Notes under the pieces: generated by a model
What the model was told of the DNA's origin: nothing
The model's database searches: none
The model's input: the letters and a program-made list of their open reading frames with translations, nothing else
Source: an uncultured Gammaproteobacteria bacterium
GTDB lineage: Bacteria; Patescibacteriota; Microgenomatia; JAMCZE01
NCBI GenBank assembly: GCA_964641255.1
Contig: CAZXMM010000001.1
Span: 246,973-310,972 of the forward strand
Direction: 5' to 3'
Length of the DNA: 64,000 nt
Position numbers and translations under genes: made by a program
Shown: piece after piece, positions 24,859 to 42,087 of the stretch
How positions within the stretch are numbered: the stretch's first letter is position 1
How the letters are laid out: each line of letters opens with the position of its first letter

Positions 24859-26046
24859 ATGGCAGACGCAGCAAAATTCAATCGTTCCAAGCCTCACGTT
24901 AATATTGGTACCATGGGTCACGTTGATCATGGAAAAACCACCCTGACCTCAGCGATTACCACGGTACTCGCCAAAAAGGGTTTGTCCAAGGCGATGGCCT
25001 ACGATCAAATCGATAATTCCCCCGAAGAAAAGGCTCGTGGTGTCACTATCAACATTACTCACGTCGAATATGAGACGGAGAATCGGCACTATGCTCATAT
25101 CGATATGCCGGGTCACGCCGACTATATCAAAAACATGATTACCGGAGCCGCCCAGGTTGACGGCGCGATTTTAGTAGTTTCTGCTCCTGATGGCCCGATG
25201 GCCCAGACCAGAGAGCATTTACTACTTGCTAAGCAAGTTAACGTCCCGGCTATTGTAGTCTTCTTAAATAAAGTCGATATGGTTAGCGATCCTGAACTGC
25301 TTGATTTAGTCGAAGAAGAGGTTCGTGAGCTACTGGACAAATACGGGTTCCATGGTAAAGACGTTCCGATTATTCGTGGCTCTGCCCTTAAGGCTACCGA
25401 GGGGGATGCAGAGAATGAGCAGAAGATTATGGACCTAATGGCAGCGGTTGATTCCTATATTCCCACTCCAGTGCGTGAATTAGATAAACCCTTCCTGATG
25501 CCAGTTGAAGACGTTTTCTCAATTAAAGGTCGAGGAACAGTGGTAACGGGGAAAATTGATCGTGGCGTTATTAAAGTCAACGAAGAAGTGGAGATTGTGG
25601 GTCTTAAGGCTACCCAAAAAAGTGTGGTGACCGGAGTAGAAATGTTCCGCAAACAACTTGATGAGGGCCAAGCCGGGGATAACGTTGGGCTGCTTCTAAG
25701 AGGGATCGAAAAAGATCAGGTGGAACGTGGACAAGTACTCGCTAAACCTGGATCAATTACTCCCCACACGGAGTTTGAGGCCGAAGTCTACATTCTTTCT
25801 AAGGAGGAAGGCGGACGTCATACACCATTCTTTACAGGCTATCGTCCCCAGTTCTACATTAGAACTACGGATGTTACCGGTGAAGTTACTCTAAATGAGG
25901 GAGTAGAAATGGTCATGCCGGGAGATAATGCCAAGATGAAAGTGAAGCTGATTCAACCGGTAGCTCTTGAGGATGGAATGCGTTTTGCCATCCGTGAAGG
26001 CGGCCACACCGTAGGAGCCGGAGTGGTTAGTAAAATTATTGCTTAA
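24859..26046 (+). CDS. tuf: Elongation factor Tu
   Basis: [22 protein letters not shown] motifs; 395 aa. Confidence 0.97.
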
Positions 26047-36634: not shown

Positions 36635-37219
36635 ATGGCACAATACTCAACTGAACCAAAAGAATTTGAAGAAAAAGTTGTCCAAGTAAATCGAGTGTCT
36701 AAAAAGACTGCCGGTGGCAGTGTGATGCGTTTTAGTGTCCTGGTAGTGGTTGGAGACCGTAAAAGTCGAGTGGGAGTAGGTTTGGGCCAGGCCCTAGAAG
36801 TTCAAAGTGCGGTTCGTAAGGCAGTGGCCTATGCTAAAAAGCATCTTTTTACAGTCCCTATGAAAGGGACGACTATTCCTCATGAAGTGTTGGCCAAGTT
36901 TGGAGCAGCTAAAGTTTTACTTAGACCGGCCCCCCCAGGCTCTGGTGTTATTGCCGGCGGGGCAGTCAGGGCGGTAGTAGAGGCGGCGGGGATTCGTGAT
37001 ATCAGTAGTAAGGTACTTGGTACCGACAACCAAGCTAACAATGTGTATGCGACTCTGGAGGGGCTGAAAAAACTCAAGGTTGGGAGGCTTGGCCAAGCAC
37101 CCCAGGGTCAGAAGTTAGCAGTTACTGAGGCTGGTGTTCCCGAGACCGAGGTCCTTCCCGTGGTAAAGATTCCAGTAGAGCCAGCGAAGAAGCCCAAGAA
37201 GTTTAAGAAGCACTTATGA
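36635..37219 (+). CDS. rpsE: 30S ribosomal protein S5, with C-terminal extension
   Basis: dsRBD plus S5 domain 2-like motifs; 194 aa; 4-nt overlap with rplO leaves no room for rpmD. Confidence 0.95.
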
Positions 37220-37656
37220 ATCTAGCTACTCTTTCCAAAATAGTACAAAAATCTTACCGTCGAGTGGGTAGGGGGCACGGTTCTGGTCGAGTTAAAACCT
37301 CTGGTCGTGGTACCAAGGGACAAAAAGCTCGGGGAACGATTCCGGTAGCATTTGCTGGTTCATCCCTCCAAGCCTCTTGGTTAAAGCGCCTTCCTTTAAT
37401 GCGGGGCAAGGGGAAGAACAAATCTTTTCAAAAAGACGTGGAAGTCCTAAATCTCAACCGTCTTAACAAATTTAAGGCGGGGTCCACTATTACTCTAGTC
37501 ACTCTCATCGAAGCCGGGGTTATAAATAAACTCGCCACCAGAGTTAAGATTGTTGACAACGGCGAAATCACCGTTGCCCTACGGGTCAAAGTTCCTGCTT
37601 CAGCGGGAGCTGCTAAGAAAATTGAGAAAGCTGGTGGTAGCGTGGAGCCTATTTAG
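37216..37656 (+). CDS. rplO: 50S ribosomal protein L15
   Basis: [23 protein letters not shown]. Confidence 0.95.
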
Positions 37657-38057
37657 TTCTTTTCTTTGTCTTTTTCCAGTTGCGAAGTACACTGTGGACA
37701 CCTAATTGCCTTAACTGCAACTAAGGATTGACAATAAGGACAGATTTTCTGCTCGGGTGGTTTTTCAGACTCGCTTCTAGATCTATTCATTTGTTTTACT
37801 ACCAGAAAGATCACAAAACTGACAATCAGAAAATTGACTACCGTATTAATAAAGGTGCCGTAGTTGATGCTGGCAGTTCCTACTTGAAACTTTAAGTCTG
37901 TGAAATCCACTCGACCCAAGACGATGCCAAATGGCGGCATTAAAATATCATCTACCAAAGAAGAGACGATCTTACCGAAGGCCGTTCCAATTATGACCCC
38001 AATTGCGAGGTCGACGACATTGCCTTTTAGAGCAAACTTCTTGAATTCTTCTAGCAT
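37653..38057 (-). CDS. mscL: Large-conductance mechanosensitive channel MscL with C-terminal zinc-ribbon extension
   Basis: MLEEFKKFALKGNVVDLAIGVIIGTAFGKIV MscL TM1 signature; second TM; C-terminal CPYC...CPQC; start moved to the ATG at 38055-38057 (ORF track starts at a TTG at 38099). Confidence 0.8.
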   Translation of the reverse strand: MLEEFKKFALKGNVVDLAIGVIIGTAFGKIVSSLVDDILMPPFGIVLGRVDFTDLKFQVGTASINYGTFINTVVNFLIVSFVIFLVVKQMNRSRSESEKPPEQKICPYCQSLVAVKAIRCPQCTSQLEKDKEKN

Positions 38058-38080
38058 GATAGTGATTGTACCATTTTGCT

Positions 38081-38110
38081 TTCTTGCAATATCTTGCAAT
38101 ATCTTGCAAT
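38081..38110. repeat. Three tandem 10-bp direct repeats (tTCTTGCAAT / ATCTTGCAAT x2), each containing the palindromic hexamer TTGCAA; divergent mscL/fic intergenic region
   Basis: Read directly; extended -10 TGgTACAAT for mscL just beyond on the minus strand; fic ATG 12 nt downstream. Confidence 0.8.
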
Positions 38111-38121
38111 ATTAATGAATA

Positions 38122-39141
38122 ATGAAGATTCTCCAAATTCCCCCATCTTACCGTCTTTCCAAGACCGCTATCCGATTGCTCTCGGAGATTGAGTCTAATA
38201 GTGCCGTTATCAGTGAAATTTCTCTTCCTCTCGAAGTAGAAAGAAATATTCGTCGTCAATCAGTATTAGGCAGTGCTTTGTTCTCAGCTCGTATAGAAGG
38301 AAACACCCTGACGAGAGCCGAGGTAGAAAATTTCACTAAGCTACCTAGAAAAGATCAGCAACAGGTTGAAGTGGAAAATCTTAGTCGGGTAATAGAGAGA
38401 ATTCTATCTCAATGGGCTAATCCCAACAAGAAAATAACCAAGACGGATCTTTTGGATTGGCAGGGGCAGGCGATGCGAAACATTTTGGATACAGAATTCT
38501 CAAGTAGCTTTAGAACTGGCCATGAAGGACTTTTTGATAGAGCCGGGACTCTTTATTATCATGCTCCCCCGCCAGCCTACATCCCCGCTCTTGTTGACGA
38601 GTTACTCCTCTTTGTAAATAGTAAAAAAGAAAAACTCGTTCCCGTTCGAGCTATTCTTGCCCATTTAGTCTTTGAAAAGATTCACCCTTTTGTTGATGGT
38701 AATGGTCGGGTAGGAAGACTTTTACAGCTCGCGATATTAACTAGGGGTGGCTATGCGATGAAAGGACTGGCAGTTATCGAAGAGGAAATTGAGAAACAGC
38801 GCCAGTTATACTACAGAGCTATTGAACGGAGCAATAATTCTGATGCGACCCCCTTTGTTATGCTAATGCTTGAGCTTATTCGTGACGCCTCCCTAAAAGC
38901 AAAGAAGACTCTTCTTGCCAAGAAAAATAATCCTTCCCAACTTGATGTCTTATCTCCCAGGCGTCAAGAGATTGTCCAAATGGTTTACGACCAACGACTT
39001 ATCTCGTTTGATTCTATTCATAGACGTTTTATCAGGATGAGTTCTCGGCAAATTGCCTACGATCTGGAGTTCTTAATAAAACGTGGCTATCTCACCAAGG
39101 TTGGCACTACCCGGGGAGCTCTCTATGCTCCAAAAGAATAA
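38122..39141 (+). CDS. fic: Fic-family adenylyltransferase (AMPylase), class II (internal inhibitory helix), with C-terminal winged-HTH-like domain
   Basis: Canonical Fic motif HPFVDGNGRVGR; inhibitory motif (S/T)xxxE(G/N) = SARIEGN about 140 aa upstream; C-terminal ~70 aa wHTH-like. Confidence 0.85.
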   Translation: MKILQIPPSYRLSKTAIRLLSEIESNSAVISEISLPLEVERNIRRQSVLGSALFSARIEGNTLTRAEVENFTKLPRKDQQQVEVENLSRVIERILSQWANPNKKITKTDLLDWQGQAMRNILDTEFSSSFRTGHEGLFDRAGTLYYHAPPPAYIPALVDELLLFVNSKKEKLVPVRAILAHLVFEKIHPFVDGNGRVGRLLQLAILTRGGYAMKGLAVIEEEIEKQRQLYYRAIERSNNSDATPFVMLMLELIRDASLKAKKTLLAKKNNPSQLDVLSPRRQEIVQMVYDQRLISFDSIHRRFIRMSSRQIAYDLEFLIKRGYLTKVGTTRGALYAPKE

Positions 39142-39159
39142 GTGTGCTAAGATAAGGGC

Positions 39160-40446
39160 GTGAATCGAGTAGTAAATACCCTAATCCAAACCTGGAACAC
39201 TCCAGAGCTGAGAAAGAAGATTATCTTCACTTTGGTCATCTTTTTTGTTTTTCGGCTGTTTGCTCATATTCCCGTTCCGGGAGTTGATTTGGTCAGTCTT
39301 AAAAATCTGTTTGCCCAAAATCAGTTTTTGGGTTTACTTGACATTTTTTCCGGGGGTACTTTGGCTAATTTTTCTGTCATGGCCTTAGGACTTAATCCGT
39401 ACATTAATGCCACCATTATTATGCAGCTCCTACAGATGGTAGTTCCAGAACTTGAGGCTCTGGCTAAAGAGGGAGAATCAGGGCGAATGAAAATTAATCA
39501 GTATTCTCGAATGATTACCGTGCCTTTGGCCGCCCTTCAGGCGCTAGGAACCTACGCTTTATTAAAAAATCAAAATATAATTGGGGCACTTGACCCACTG
39601 ACTCTAGTCTCTCTTATTCTTACATTGACAGCAGGAACACTGCTACTTATGTGGCTGGGTGAGCTCATTACTGAATACGGGATTGGTAACGGTATTTCTA
39701 TGTTGATCTTTGGTGGTATCGTCGGAAGGTTTCCGGTGCTTTTCGGTCAAACGGTATCTATCATTACTGGCGATCAACTCTTTAACATTATTATTTTTGG
39801 AGGGGTAGCACTGCTCGTTATAGCGGGAATTGTTATGGTCAATGAAGCCGCTAGACAAATTCCGGTAGTTTACGCTAGGCGGGTACGAGGCAACAAGATG
39901 TACGGTGGTCAGTCGACTTTTCTTCCCCTTCGGGTAAATCAAGCGGGAGTGATTCCGATTATCTTTGCTGTTTCTTTAGTTCTCTTACCTTCTCTCCTTG
40001 GTCAATATTTGGGGCAAATTCCCAATCCACTGGTGTCCCGAGTAGCTTTGGGACTAAGTAGTGCTTTCGATCCAAGAAGCTGGGTCTATAATGTCTTTTA
40101 TTTTCTACTGGTGATTGGTTTTACCTATTTTTATACAGCTATAACTTTTAACCCGGCCAAAATTGCAGAAGAAGTGCAAAAGCATGGTGGCTTTATTCCT
40201 GGTATTCGTCCAGGAACACCCACTACTCAGTATCTTAACTATATCTTGACCAGGATTACTCTAGCTGGAGCCGTCTTTTTAGGATTGGTGGCTGTTTTAC
40301 CCTCTCTTGTCCAGGGGGTCAGTAGTGTAGCTACACTAACTGTTGGTGGCACAGGAGTGTTAATTGTAGTTTCGGTGGTTTTAGAAACCACTAGACAATT
40401 TGAAACCATGCTAGTTACACGCAACTACGACAATTTTGCTCGATGA
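39160..40446 (+). CDS. secY: Preprotein translocase SecY
   Basis: 10 TM segments, SecY-like; conserved position after rplO. Confidence 0.95.
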
Positions 40447-41006
40447 ACCTAATAGTTCTTGGTCCTCCCGGCTCTGGTAAATCCACTCAGTCAAAGCTTC
40501 TTAGTGAATTCTTATCAGTTACCCATATTGTTTCTGGAGATATCGCTCGAGAGATAGCGACAGCCGATAACCCTCTTGGCTCTAAAGTTAAAAAAGATAT
40601 TAAAGACGGGCAGCTGATTCCCACCGAACTGTTGTTTCCCAAAATCAGTGGGGCAATTTTAGAAGCGGTTAAGAAGGGGGGCTTTGTCCTTGATGGCTAC
40701 CCCAGGGACCAAAAAGAAGCCCAAAGGCTGAGTTCTTTTTTGCAAGAAAAGAACATCGAGATTAAAAGTGTGATCGTTATAGTGGTAAGCGCGGCAAATA
40801 TTTTGGCCAGACTAGCCAAGCGGGCAGCGGTGGAAATGAGAAGTGATGACACCCCCTCGGCTATTAATGAACGCCTGGCAATTTATAACAACCAAACCCA
40901 AGAAGTGATTAGCAGCTTTAGGGGTCAGGGGTTAGTCAGAGAAGTAAACGGAGATGGGACAATTGCCAATGTTTGGACACAGGTAATTAGCCTAATTACT
41001 CCATGA
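40443..41006 (+). CDS. adk: Adenylate kinase (short form)
   Basis: [11 protein letters not shown]; 187 aa. Confidence 0.9.
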
Positions 41007-41779
41007 TCGCTATTTATTCCCCAAGTGACCACGACAAAATTCGCCTCTGTGGCAAAACTACGGCTGAGGCGATGCAAGCGGTTATAGCCGCCGCTAAAGC
41101 GGGGGTAACAACTTTGGAGCTCGATGCTTTAGCCGAGAAAGTGATTGTTGCTAGAGGGGCTAAGCCGTCTTTTAAAATGGAAAAGGATTATCTCTTTACC
41201 ACCTGTCTATGTGTTAACGATGCGGTAGTACACGCCATTCCCACTAACCGACCGCTAGAAGTTGGGGACAGGCTAGGAATTGATCTGGGTAGTTACCAGG
41301 GAGGCTTCCACACCGATGCTAGTTGGTCGATTATTGTAGGCTCAAAGACCAGCAGTAATCTTCCCCCCCCTCCCCAGCTAGTAAAGTTTCTAAGTGTCGG
41401 TGAGAGGGCTCTTAAAAAGGCAATTACTGCCTGCAGAGTGGGCAACCATATTGGAGATATTTCAGCAGCGATCCAAGAAACTATCGAGGGTGCGGGTTAT
41501 AGCTGTGTCAAACAGTTAGTAGGTCACGGGGTAGGAAGAATGCTTCACGAGGATCCAGAAATCCCCTGCTATGTGCGGGGGAAGATTGCGCAGACTCCGG
41601 AGATTAAAGCGGGAATGGTGTTAGCTCTCGAAGCTATCTATAATGCAGGAAGCTCACCCGTAGTTTACGATGACAGTGGAGACGGCTGGACGATCGTTAG
41701 TCGCGATGGCTCGGTTTCCGGACTCTTTGAACATACTGTGATCGTGACTGCCCGGGGGGCAGAAGTAGTCACAGCCTAA
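41003..41779 (+). CDS. map: Methionine aminopeptidase type I
   Basis: Metal-ligand pattern (D...D...H...E...E) and position after adk. Confidence 0.9.
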   Translation: MIAIYSPSDHDKIRLCGKTTAEAMQAVIAAAKAGVTTLELDALAEKVIVARGAKPSFKMEKDYLFTTCLCVNDAVVHAIPTNRPLEVGDRLGIDLGSYQGGFHTDASWSIIVGSKTSSNLPPPPQLVKFLSVGERALKKAITACRVGNHIGDISAAIQETIEGAGYSCVKQLVGHGVGRMLHEDPEIPCYVRGKIAQTPEIKAGMVLALEAIYNAGSSPVVYDDSGDGWTIVSRDGSVSGLFEHTVIVTARGAEVVTA

Positions 41780-41814: not shown

Positions 41815-41868
41815 AGTAATTAGTCTCAAGAACAACTCTTGGGTGGTCGTTTTGGCCACTTTTTCTTT

Positions 41869-42087
41869 ATGGCACATCAAGGAACAACAGAATTCGAGGG
41901 ACAAGTTCTTGAAAACTTGCCCAACGCGATGTTTAAAATTCAGCTGTCCGACGGACGAGTTGTACTGTGTGCTTTATCGGGGAAAATGCGACTACATTAT
42001 ATTAAGATTTTCCCCGGAGATAAGGTGAGAGTTGAGATGACAGCTTACGATGATAATCGAGGAAGAATAGTTTATCGAATGAAATAA
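41869..42087 (+). CDS. infA: Translation initiation factor IF-1
   Basis: S1-like OB fold [24 protein letters not shown]...; start at MAHQG (ATG at 41869). Confidence 0.9.

Follow-up and report, generated by a model that had tools for sequence, protein, structure and literature searches.

Genes between rplO and secY

The locus described here lies in a 64,000-nt stretch of contig CAZXMM010000001.1 (hereafter the window, to which all positions refer unless a related locus is named), and centers on fic, a gene for a Fic-domain protein that directly precedes secY. The source organism belongs to Candidatus Levybacteria (Patescibacteria), and the contig that encodes this exact Fic protein is 950 kb long. 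Genes were identified from the list of open reading frames (ORFs) and with Pfam and NCBIfam hidden Markov models (HMMs). Between 35 and 43 kb, a plus-strand run of ribosomal protein genes (rpsH-rplF-rplR-rpsE-rplO) stops at 37656, and is followed by mscL on the minus strand, fic on the plus strand, and then secY, adk, map, infA, rpsM and rpsK. The terminal gene of the upstream run, rplO (37216..37656, plus strand; Pfam Ribosomal_L27A, 1.1e-13), encodes L15 and overlaps mscL tail to tail, the two stop codons meeting at 37653-37656. A first-pass annotation had proposed that a minus-strand mscL and a plus-strand fic separate rplO from secY, and both ORFs were found where it had placed them, in a gap of 1.5 kb.

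The fic gene (38122..39141, plus strand) encodes a protein of 339 aa. Residues 105-206 matched the Pfam Fic family (PF02661, 1.9e-16) with 61.1 bits against a cut-off of 24, which upholds the earlier assignment to this family. The fic stop codon and the secY start are 18 bp apart, and the spacer between mscL and fic measures 64 bp. secY (39160..40446, plus strand; Pfam SecY, 5.7e-105) starts with GTG; after it, the source contig's gene table lists adk (40443-41006), map (41003-41779) and infA (41839-42087).

The mscL gene (37653..38057, minus strand) encodes a protein of 134 aa, and matched Pfam MscL (PF01741, 1.3e-41; 142.2 bits, cut-off 27.4) and TIGR00220 (133.3 bits, cut-off 71). Its start is most likely the ATG at 38057 rather than the TTG at 38099, which would give a longer ORF (37653-38099), since residue 15 of the long ORF is the first to align with the MscL HMM, and a length of 134 aa agrees with the public gene call. 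The GC content of the insert (0.39-0.44) is near that of its flanks. A pseudogene or a recent insertion was considered and rejected on account of this flank-like composition, the full set of intact catalytic residues and the conservation of fic throughout the clade described below.

Motifs and predicted structure of Fic

The catalytic motif HPFVDGNGRVGR of Fic (H188-PFVDGNGRVG-R199; 38683..38718, plus strand) fits the canonical HxFx(D/E)GNGRxxR. A second motif, S55-ARI-E59-G-N (SARIEGN; 38284..38304, plus strand), resembles the inhibitory motif of autoinhibited Fic proteins. In an alignment of 48 homologues (43-64% identity), S55, E59, G60, N61, H188, F190, D192, G193, G195 and R196 were invariant (48/48), as were 13 of the last 65 residues, in the C-terminal domain. 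Position 194 is Asn in 15 of the 48 homologues and Ser in the other 33 (HPFxDGSGRxGR); the window protein has Asn (38700-38702). The first-pass description of an intact Fic catalytic motif therefore held, the motif positions at residues 188-199 being invariant or nearly so apart from 194.

The same alignment was used to build an AlphaFold2 (AF2) model, which had a pLDDT of 92.4 and a pTM of 0.88. The model shows an N-terminal helix (residues 14-32; 38161..38217), a second helix (residues 37-58) ending in the inhibitory motif, a Fic core bearing a beta-hairpin flap (residues 136-147), and a C-terminal winged helix-turn-helix (wHTH) domain (residues 273-339; 38938..39138). The wHTH elements span residues 279-337, with helices at 279-291, 296-302 and 308-320 followed by a beta hairpin at 324-337, and the likely recognition helix is S307-SRQIAYDL-315. 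Foldseek searches of the PDB gave full-length matches, with TM scores of 0.61-0.70, to 4RGL, 7CB8, 7XUX, SoFic (3EQX, 3ZCN and 3ZEC) and Coxiella Fic2 (8CIL), and a match of the core to human FICD (root-mean-square deviation (rmsd) 2.7 Å, 26% identity). The inhibitory helix and the winged-helix-like domain, both anticipated in the first-pass annotation, are thus recovered in the predicted structure, the latter with full-length matches to crystal structures of Fic proteins that carry a wHTH.

In the classification of Engel et al. 2012, class II Fic proteins carry (S/T)xxxE(G/N) on an N-terminal helix of the same chain. SARIEGN had been read as placing the protein in this class, and the invariance of S55, E59 and G60, together with the alignment of E59 with the regulatory E234 of FICD, agrees with that reading. 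Class I and class III were rejected, the inhibitory motif being N-terminal and in the same chain.

Among PDB sequences, the best match to Fic was 4RGL (3.8e-22), followed by FICD (9e-16) and SoFic (4e-9). The first of these is Dde_2494, which is the best PDB match both by sequence (residues 7-262) and by structure (E 8.8e-14); it is a functionally uncharacterised structural-genomics Fic and adds no mechanism. FICD/HYPE is the closest characterised protein for the Fic core and inhibitory helix (residues 39-250), and is a bifunctional AMPylase/deAMPylase. It differs from the window protein in having an N-terminal membrane anchor and tetratricopeptide repeats, in lacking a wHTH and in dimerising via the Fic domain; its substrate is BiP.

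SoFic from Shewanella oneidensis (SO_4266/MloA) shares with the window protein the full order of an N-terminal helix leading into the inhibitory (S/T)xxxE(G/N) helix, the Fic core and the wHTH, and was matched over the full length with TM scores of 0.65-0.70. In the model, helix 14-32 is positionally equivalent to the SoFic dimerisation helix that leads into the inhibitory helix (bioRxiv 10.64898/2026.07.09.737422). Dimeric SoFic AMPylates EF-Tu, primarily at Thr65 and also at Thr62, which inhibits translation; it deAMPylates EF-Tu through the inhibitory Glu (bioRxiv 10.64898/2026.07.09.737422). The two proteins are nevertheless only 17-18% identical in the structural alignment, SoFic is longer (372 aa, compared with 339), and a location in a ribosomal or secY operon is not reported for SoFic. 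The PADLOC SoFic HMM covered residues 7-336 of 339 (1.8e-41, 140.8 bits; this model carries no curated threshold). The NCBIfam SoFic equivalog NF046030 gave 47.3 bits, far under its cut-off of 550, and the window protein is set apart from SoFic orthologues because of this score.

CccR from Yersinia pseudotuberculosis likewise belongs to class II; its inhibitory motif (S59ARIEG) is identical to that of the window protein, and it ends in a C-terminal HTH (PMC9755527). As a dimer-dependent autorepressor, CccR binds its own promoter at 10-bp inverted repeats next to the -35 and -10 boxes, and in a separate activity it AMPylates FtsZ (PMC9755527). CccR is an effector secreted by a type VI secretion system, whereas a secretion-system context was not seen at the window locus. 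By sequence and predicted fold, the window protein is a class II Fic with the architecture of SoFic and CccR, yet not a SoFic orthologue. By analogy with these relatives, it most likely forms a glutamate-inhibited, dimeric AMPylase/deAMPylase.

Fic precedes secY throughout a sub-clade of Levybacteria

The window SecY was scanned against one genome per GTDB species, giving 80 loci in which L15, MscL, Fic, SecY and Adk were mapped by tblastn. The loci nearest by SecY are labelled Candidatus Levybacteria/Levyibacteriota or Patescibacteria. fic was present directly 5′ of secY in every locus with a SecY at least 76% identical to that of the window, and fic homologues at 50-61% identity also lie directly 5′ of secY. 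Outside the fic clade, rplO abuts secY in 72 of 72 loci (41 Levybacteria-like, with SecY identities of 62-69%, and 31 outgroup). The median L15-SecY gap is 21 bp in the Levybacteria-like loci and 8 bp in the outgroup, with a maximum of 287 bp, compared with 1.5 kb in the window. These figures bear out the earlier statement that the adjacency of rplO and secY is highly conserved.

In a neighbour-joining tree of SecY, the fic-bearing loci form one clade nested in Levybacteria, with 11 distinct genomes. A full-length fic is present in ten of these (the window, L002, L004, L005, L011, L013, which is identical to L173, L014, L015, L171 and L172); the eleventh, L012, is described below. In nine of these ten genomes fic and secY are separated by 13-85 bp, and in L011 by 485 bp. 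In L005, Nramp and VKOR genes replace the upstream ribosomal genes, and the block of mscL, an ASCH-like ORF, fic and secY is intact. fic is thus linked to secY and not to rplO, because the block persists without rplO upstream.

Mean pairwise identities within the clade are 81% for S5, 80% for SecY, 69% for L15, 55% for Fic and 47% for Adk. The divergence of Fic falls between those of L15 and Adk, and therefore fits vertical descent. Correlations of Fic identity with that of SecY, L15, S5 or Adk were uninformative owing to the star-like radiation of the clade (the S5-L15 correlation was itself 0.01), and mean divergence was used instead. The secY-linked Fic proteins are monophyletic relative to the next homologue group. 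The best explanation for these patterns would be a single arrival of fic at the rplO-secY junction, in the common ancestor of the sub-clade, with fic attached to secY ever since.

The first-pass annotation had treated a uniform, lineage-specific block as the alternative to its own view of an unusual insertion. Such a block is indeed present, in that all 11 genomes of the clade have fic or its wHTH remnant at the junction. It is not without variation, as mscL and the other cargo differ between genomes, the insert is missing from sister Levybacteria, and L012 has lost the catalytic part. On the sequences compared, the rplO-secY insert is a lineage-specific syntenic block that has been vertically kept, and not a singular event.

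Variable genes upstream of fic

The interval between rplO and fic differs by genome. It is empty in L014, and contains an ASCH-like ORF in L004, L005, L013 and L171, a SpoU methyltransferase gene in L015, and HD-like and cupredoxin-like ORFs in L002. Full-length mscL is present in five of the 11 genomes (the window, L002, L004, L005 and L172), and is truncated in L015.

The ASCH-like ORF, of about 130-145 aa, is the commonest gene divergent from fic in the clade (L004:4549-4935, L005:4447-4896, L013:4370-4891 and L171:3510-3932). Its product begins MxH(V/L/I)A(I/F/Y)MK...KILSGEKTIESRWY and gives a weak match to the ASCH domain (20 bits). The window is without such an ORF.

The changing cargo, which in L012 includes a Bro-N gene typical of phages, would suit an interpretation of fic as a stand-alone SoFic-type anti-phage gene, sitting in a variable hot-spot and adjacent to secY without functional meaning. 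Infection would relieve the autoinhibition, and AMPylation of an essential host protein would then halt growth, as in abortive infection. The full-length match to the PADLOC SoFic model points the same way, and EcSoFic has been reported as an abortive-infection toxin (PMC12249575). SoFIC is also the second most prevalent 'defence' family in metagenome-assembled genomes from groundwater (PMC12259885). However, typical defence genes turn over, whereas fic is fixed at one position in 10 of 10 genomes, with a wHTH remnant in the eleventh. The aquifer survey saw no enrichment of SoFIC on mobile elements or in defence islands (PMC12259885), and at 141 bits the PADLOC match scores low compared with other family members.

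EcSoFic has a small downstream antitoxin, AS1 (PMC12249575). The 18 bp between fic and secY leave no room for an AS1-like antitoxin gene 3′ of fic in the window, and no conserved small ORF was present in the related loci. Fic relatives of more than 31% identity were absent from the matches listed among INPHARED phages (tblastn) and IMG/VR contigs (protein and alignment searches), and an origin of fic in phages finds no support in these comparisons. We consider a role purely in defence unlikely, although it shares its enzymatic mechanism with the explanation favored below and does not exclude it. A conserved chromosomal fic of this kind would score as a 'SoFic defence system', which calls for caution in surveys of such systems.

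The wider Fic family and wHTH-only derivatives

At a threshold of E ≤ 1e-5, a homology search with Fic returned 2,436 proteins. Of these, the top 120 are about 325-340 aa long, and the named ones belong to Microgenomates, Woesebacteria or 'Patescibacteria group'. All three homologues examined at 44-48% identity are encoded divergently from a gene for an FKBP-type peptidyl-prolyl isomerase, near an MFS transporter gene, and secY is not nearby. Because these more distant homologues sit in an FKBP context, linkage to secY is not a property of the Fic family as a whole. Metagenome contigs were also scanned with the Fic alignment; the matches listed were only distant (≤39% identity) and were uninformative on synteny.

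The L012 locus (contig CAYHYP010000026.1, 200-1376) lies inside the clade, and the catalytic part of Fic is absent from it. It contains, in order, about nine repeat units of the kind described below, a stand-alone wHTH gene (333-545; 70 aa, 46% identical to residues 261-338 of the window Fic), a Bro-N gene (558-1376) and secY. It appears that the AMPylase half of the gene has been deleted naturally here. A second stand-alone wHTH protein, P0241 (locus L254, 3950-4228; 75 aa, with 48% identity to the C-terminus of Fic), is encoded in an unrelated setting, and its start codon is preceded by phased TTTTGCAACA/TCTTGCAATT units. P0241 was the single candidate listed in the homology search with the wHTH alone, a yield owing to the word index of that search.

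A phased repeat array precedes fic

Immediately upstream of fic, positions 38082..38112 hold three exact 10-bp tandem units, TCTTGCAATA (Tandem Repeats Finder score 62, 100% matches), which overlap the likely -10 element of fic. This array is the top-scoring tandem repeat of the window. Each 12-mer ATnTTGCAAnAT within it is palindromic, and 38084-38109 form an imperfect 26-bp palindrome. Further sites with at most one mismatch were sought across the window, and none was found; occurrences were not above chance.

A related or identical 10-bp unit occurs in 3-6 copies immediately 5′ of fic in every related locus. The FKBP-linked homologues are preceded by units of the TCTGGCAAGA type, with 4-5 such 10-bp repeats in the spacer shared with the FKBP gene (L006:1050-1165, L008:4900-5000 and L009:4900-5000). 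In the 70 nt before the fic start, self-matches at a lag of 10 nt totalled 424 over 14 loci, compared with 198-253 at lags of 7-9 and 11-13 nt, and the 10-bp periodicity was present in all 14 (individual z-scores 1.7-7.0). Phased units also precede the wHTH-only genes of L012 and L254. The repeats thus accompany the wHTH whatever its neighborhood, being present at secY-linked, FKBP-linked, L012 and L254 loci.

As a candidate operator, the array would be bound by the Fic wHTH, and in this it is akin to the sites of SoFic and CccR. The DNA bound by SoFic is the 100 bp that precede its start codon (bioRxiv 10.64898/2026.07.09.737422), and the window array lies within 40 bp of the fic start. The unit sequence also appears to vary with the recognition helix: proteins with RQ(I/L)(A/S)YDL go with T(T/C)GCAA units, and those with RLL(S/R)YDL or RTLRYDL go with TGG(A/T/C)A units, which is suggestive of co-variation.

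Promoter-like elements around fic

Three -10-like elements were noted around fic. An extended element, TGgTACAAT (38065..38073, minus strand), read from the sequence and missed by a two-hexamer scan, is predicted 7 nt before the mscL ATG. TATTAA (38110..38115, plus strand), a consensus match, lies inside the last repeat, 6 nt before the fic ATG. A second extended -10-like element, TGTGCTAAGAT (39143..39153, plus strand), again read from the sequence, is predicted 6 nt before the secY GTG. In the window, L004, L005, L013, L014 and L015, elements resembling TGTG(C/A)TAA(G/T)AT occur 6-9 nt 5′ of the secY start. Levybacteria that have no fic also lack this secY-proximal element; in them, the secY ATG follows almost immediately on the rplO stop codon.

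In mscL, fic and secY, a -10-like hexamer is located 6-7 nt before the start codon and a Shine-Dalgarno sequence is absent (38057-38073, 38110-38124 and 39143-39162). This suggests leaderless transcripts for mscL, fic and the GTG-initiated secY. A consensus scan predicted no plus-strand terminator-like sites in the rplO-fic and fic-secY intervals, and an Rfam scan of the window gave no RNA element in the rplO-secY region.

A model for the retention of fic at secY

Taken together, the observations are probably best accounted for by the single entry of an auto-repressed Fic AMPylase/deAMPylase whose promoter now heads the secY operon. The ancestral insertion would have put divergent or convergent genes between rplO and fic. 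Transcription from the upstream ribosomal genes would collide head-on with the convergent mscL. The wHTH would bind the 10-bp-phased palindromes, which end a few bases before the fic start, and repress its own promoter; in the window, binding to the array would also affect the divergent mscL promoter. Given the head-on mscL and the lack of a predicted fic-secY terminator, transcription of secY-adk-map-infA now probably starts at the fic promoter and at the -10-like element preceding secY. Such supply would lock the module of regulator and promoter in place. This hand-over of the promoter would therefore explain why fic stays before secY, and why L012 kept the operator and the wHTH after the loss of the enzyme.

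The gene identities, the motifs, the fold, the clade-wide synteny and the arrays that travel with the gene are established by the comparisons above. DNA binding, autorepression, promoter use and enzymatic activity of Fic we infer from sequence patterns and by analogy, and several points weigh against the model. The regulatory steps draw on these patterns and on two characterised relatives at 17-21% identity, and the SoFic equivalog score is low, as noted above. TGTGnTAAnAT showed no enrichment above chance in the 64-kb window, and the promoter calls are consensus matches. CccR binds two inverted 10-mers 26 bp apart, whereas 3-9 contiguous 10-bp-phased units are present here, so the geometry of binding may differ. 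The co-variation of unit and recognition helix rests on one phylogenetic co-transition, and L254 has TCTTGCAA units yet a different recognition helix. The variable cargo and the Bro-N gene of L012 are also compatible with a hot-spot for mobile or defence genes. Finally, in the switch-I region of the window EF-Tu (24859-26046), Thr62 is kept, while position 65, the main SoFic site, is Ile, with a Thr at 66.

EF-Tu is, by analogy, the best substrate candidate, though the main SoFic site is not conserved here. Nothing points to SecY or the ribosomal proteins as substrates. The first-pass annotation had supposed that fic could tie AMPylation to translation or secretion components. This was only partly supported, since Thr65 of EF-Tu is replaced and the wider family lies apart from secY.

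The same supposition can be widened to a functional coupling, in which the Fic-wHTH protein governs secY-adk-map-infA, or AMPylates SecY/SecA, IF1, a ribosomal protein or EF-Tu, and thereby couples protein export and synthesis to the cell's energy or ATP level. The adjacency of fic and secY is invariant in the clade even after the loss of rplO, and L012 retains a wHTH and operator 5′ of secY without a catalytic domain, both of which favor such coupling. SoFic modifies EF-Tu and inhibits translation, and in sequence the Fic core has its nearest counterpart in FICD, the modifier of the endoplasmic reticulum chaperone BiP; the second conserved context of the family also adjoins a folding catalyst, of the FKBP type. 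However, no operator-like sites were found elsewhere in the window, the wider family is not secY-linked, EF-Tu Thr65 is not conserved in this organism, and promoter lock-in alone can account for the adjacency. A coupling of this kind therefore seems doubtful to us.

We regard as similarly improbable the more specific proposal of a Fic AMPylase domesticated as a promoter-proximal regulator. Here the wHTH on the phased palindromes would set the transcription of secY-adk-map-infA, and the nucleotide-dependent Fic domain would sense or relay the energetic state or stress of the cell, perhaps through modification of a factor in translation or secretion. If this were so, a post-translational modifier would control one specific operon of core machinery in an organism whose genome is ultra-reduced, and the L012 derivative would be the switch reduced to its DNA-binding half.

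The type of protein is known; what is new is that its place at the start of the secY operon is fixed across a clade, that a contiguous phased array is conserved family-wide, and that a wHTH-only derivative occurs naturally. No report of a Fic protein in an spc or secY operon, or of AMPylation in Patescibacteria, was found in a literature search of incomplete coverage. The role of bacterial class II Fic-wHTH proteins is unsettled, with defence toxin, EF-Tu regulator and transcription factor all reported. An ultra-small groundwater bacterium with a genome of about 1 Mb has kept fic before secY through the divergence of its whole clade. The locus offers a compact test system, with one protein, a 31-bp candidate operator and two to three candidate promoters, for separating DNA binding from AMPylation. 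It is equally suited to asking whether the functions of Fic feed into core gene expression.

Other features of the locus

The first-pass annotation had noted a zinc ribbon in the divergent mscL. The ribbon is present at the MscL C-terminus (37653-37730), as CPYC-x12-CPQC in place of the usual helical bundle, and is ordinary: of the 120 best homologues of MscL, 119 have it, with Firmicutes, Planctomycetes, Verrucomicrobia, Chloroflexi and the candidate phyla radiation (CPR) represented. Zinc-ribbon MscL proteins form a widespread subfamily, apparently undescribed in Pfam, and are no peculiarity of the rplO-secY locus.

Downstream of secY, Adk (40443-41006) is much more divergent in the clade than the adjoining SecY, with identities of 35-41% to the window protein.

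In the upstream ribosomal protein run, rpsE is directly followed by rplO with a 4-nt overlap (window 36635-37656), and rpmD, encoding L30, is absent between them. Adjacent rpsE and rplO genes without rpmD are typical of CPR/Patescibacteria genomes. The S5 protein encoded by rpsE in the window carries a lysine-rich C-terminal extension of about 45 aa.

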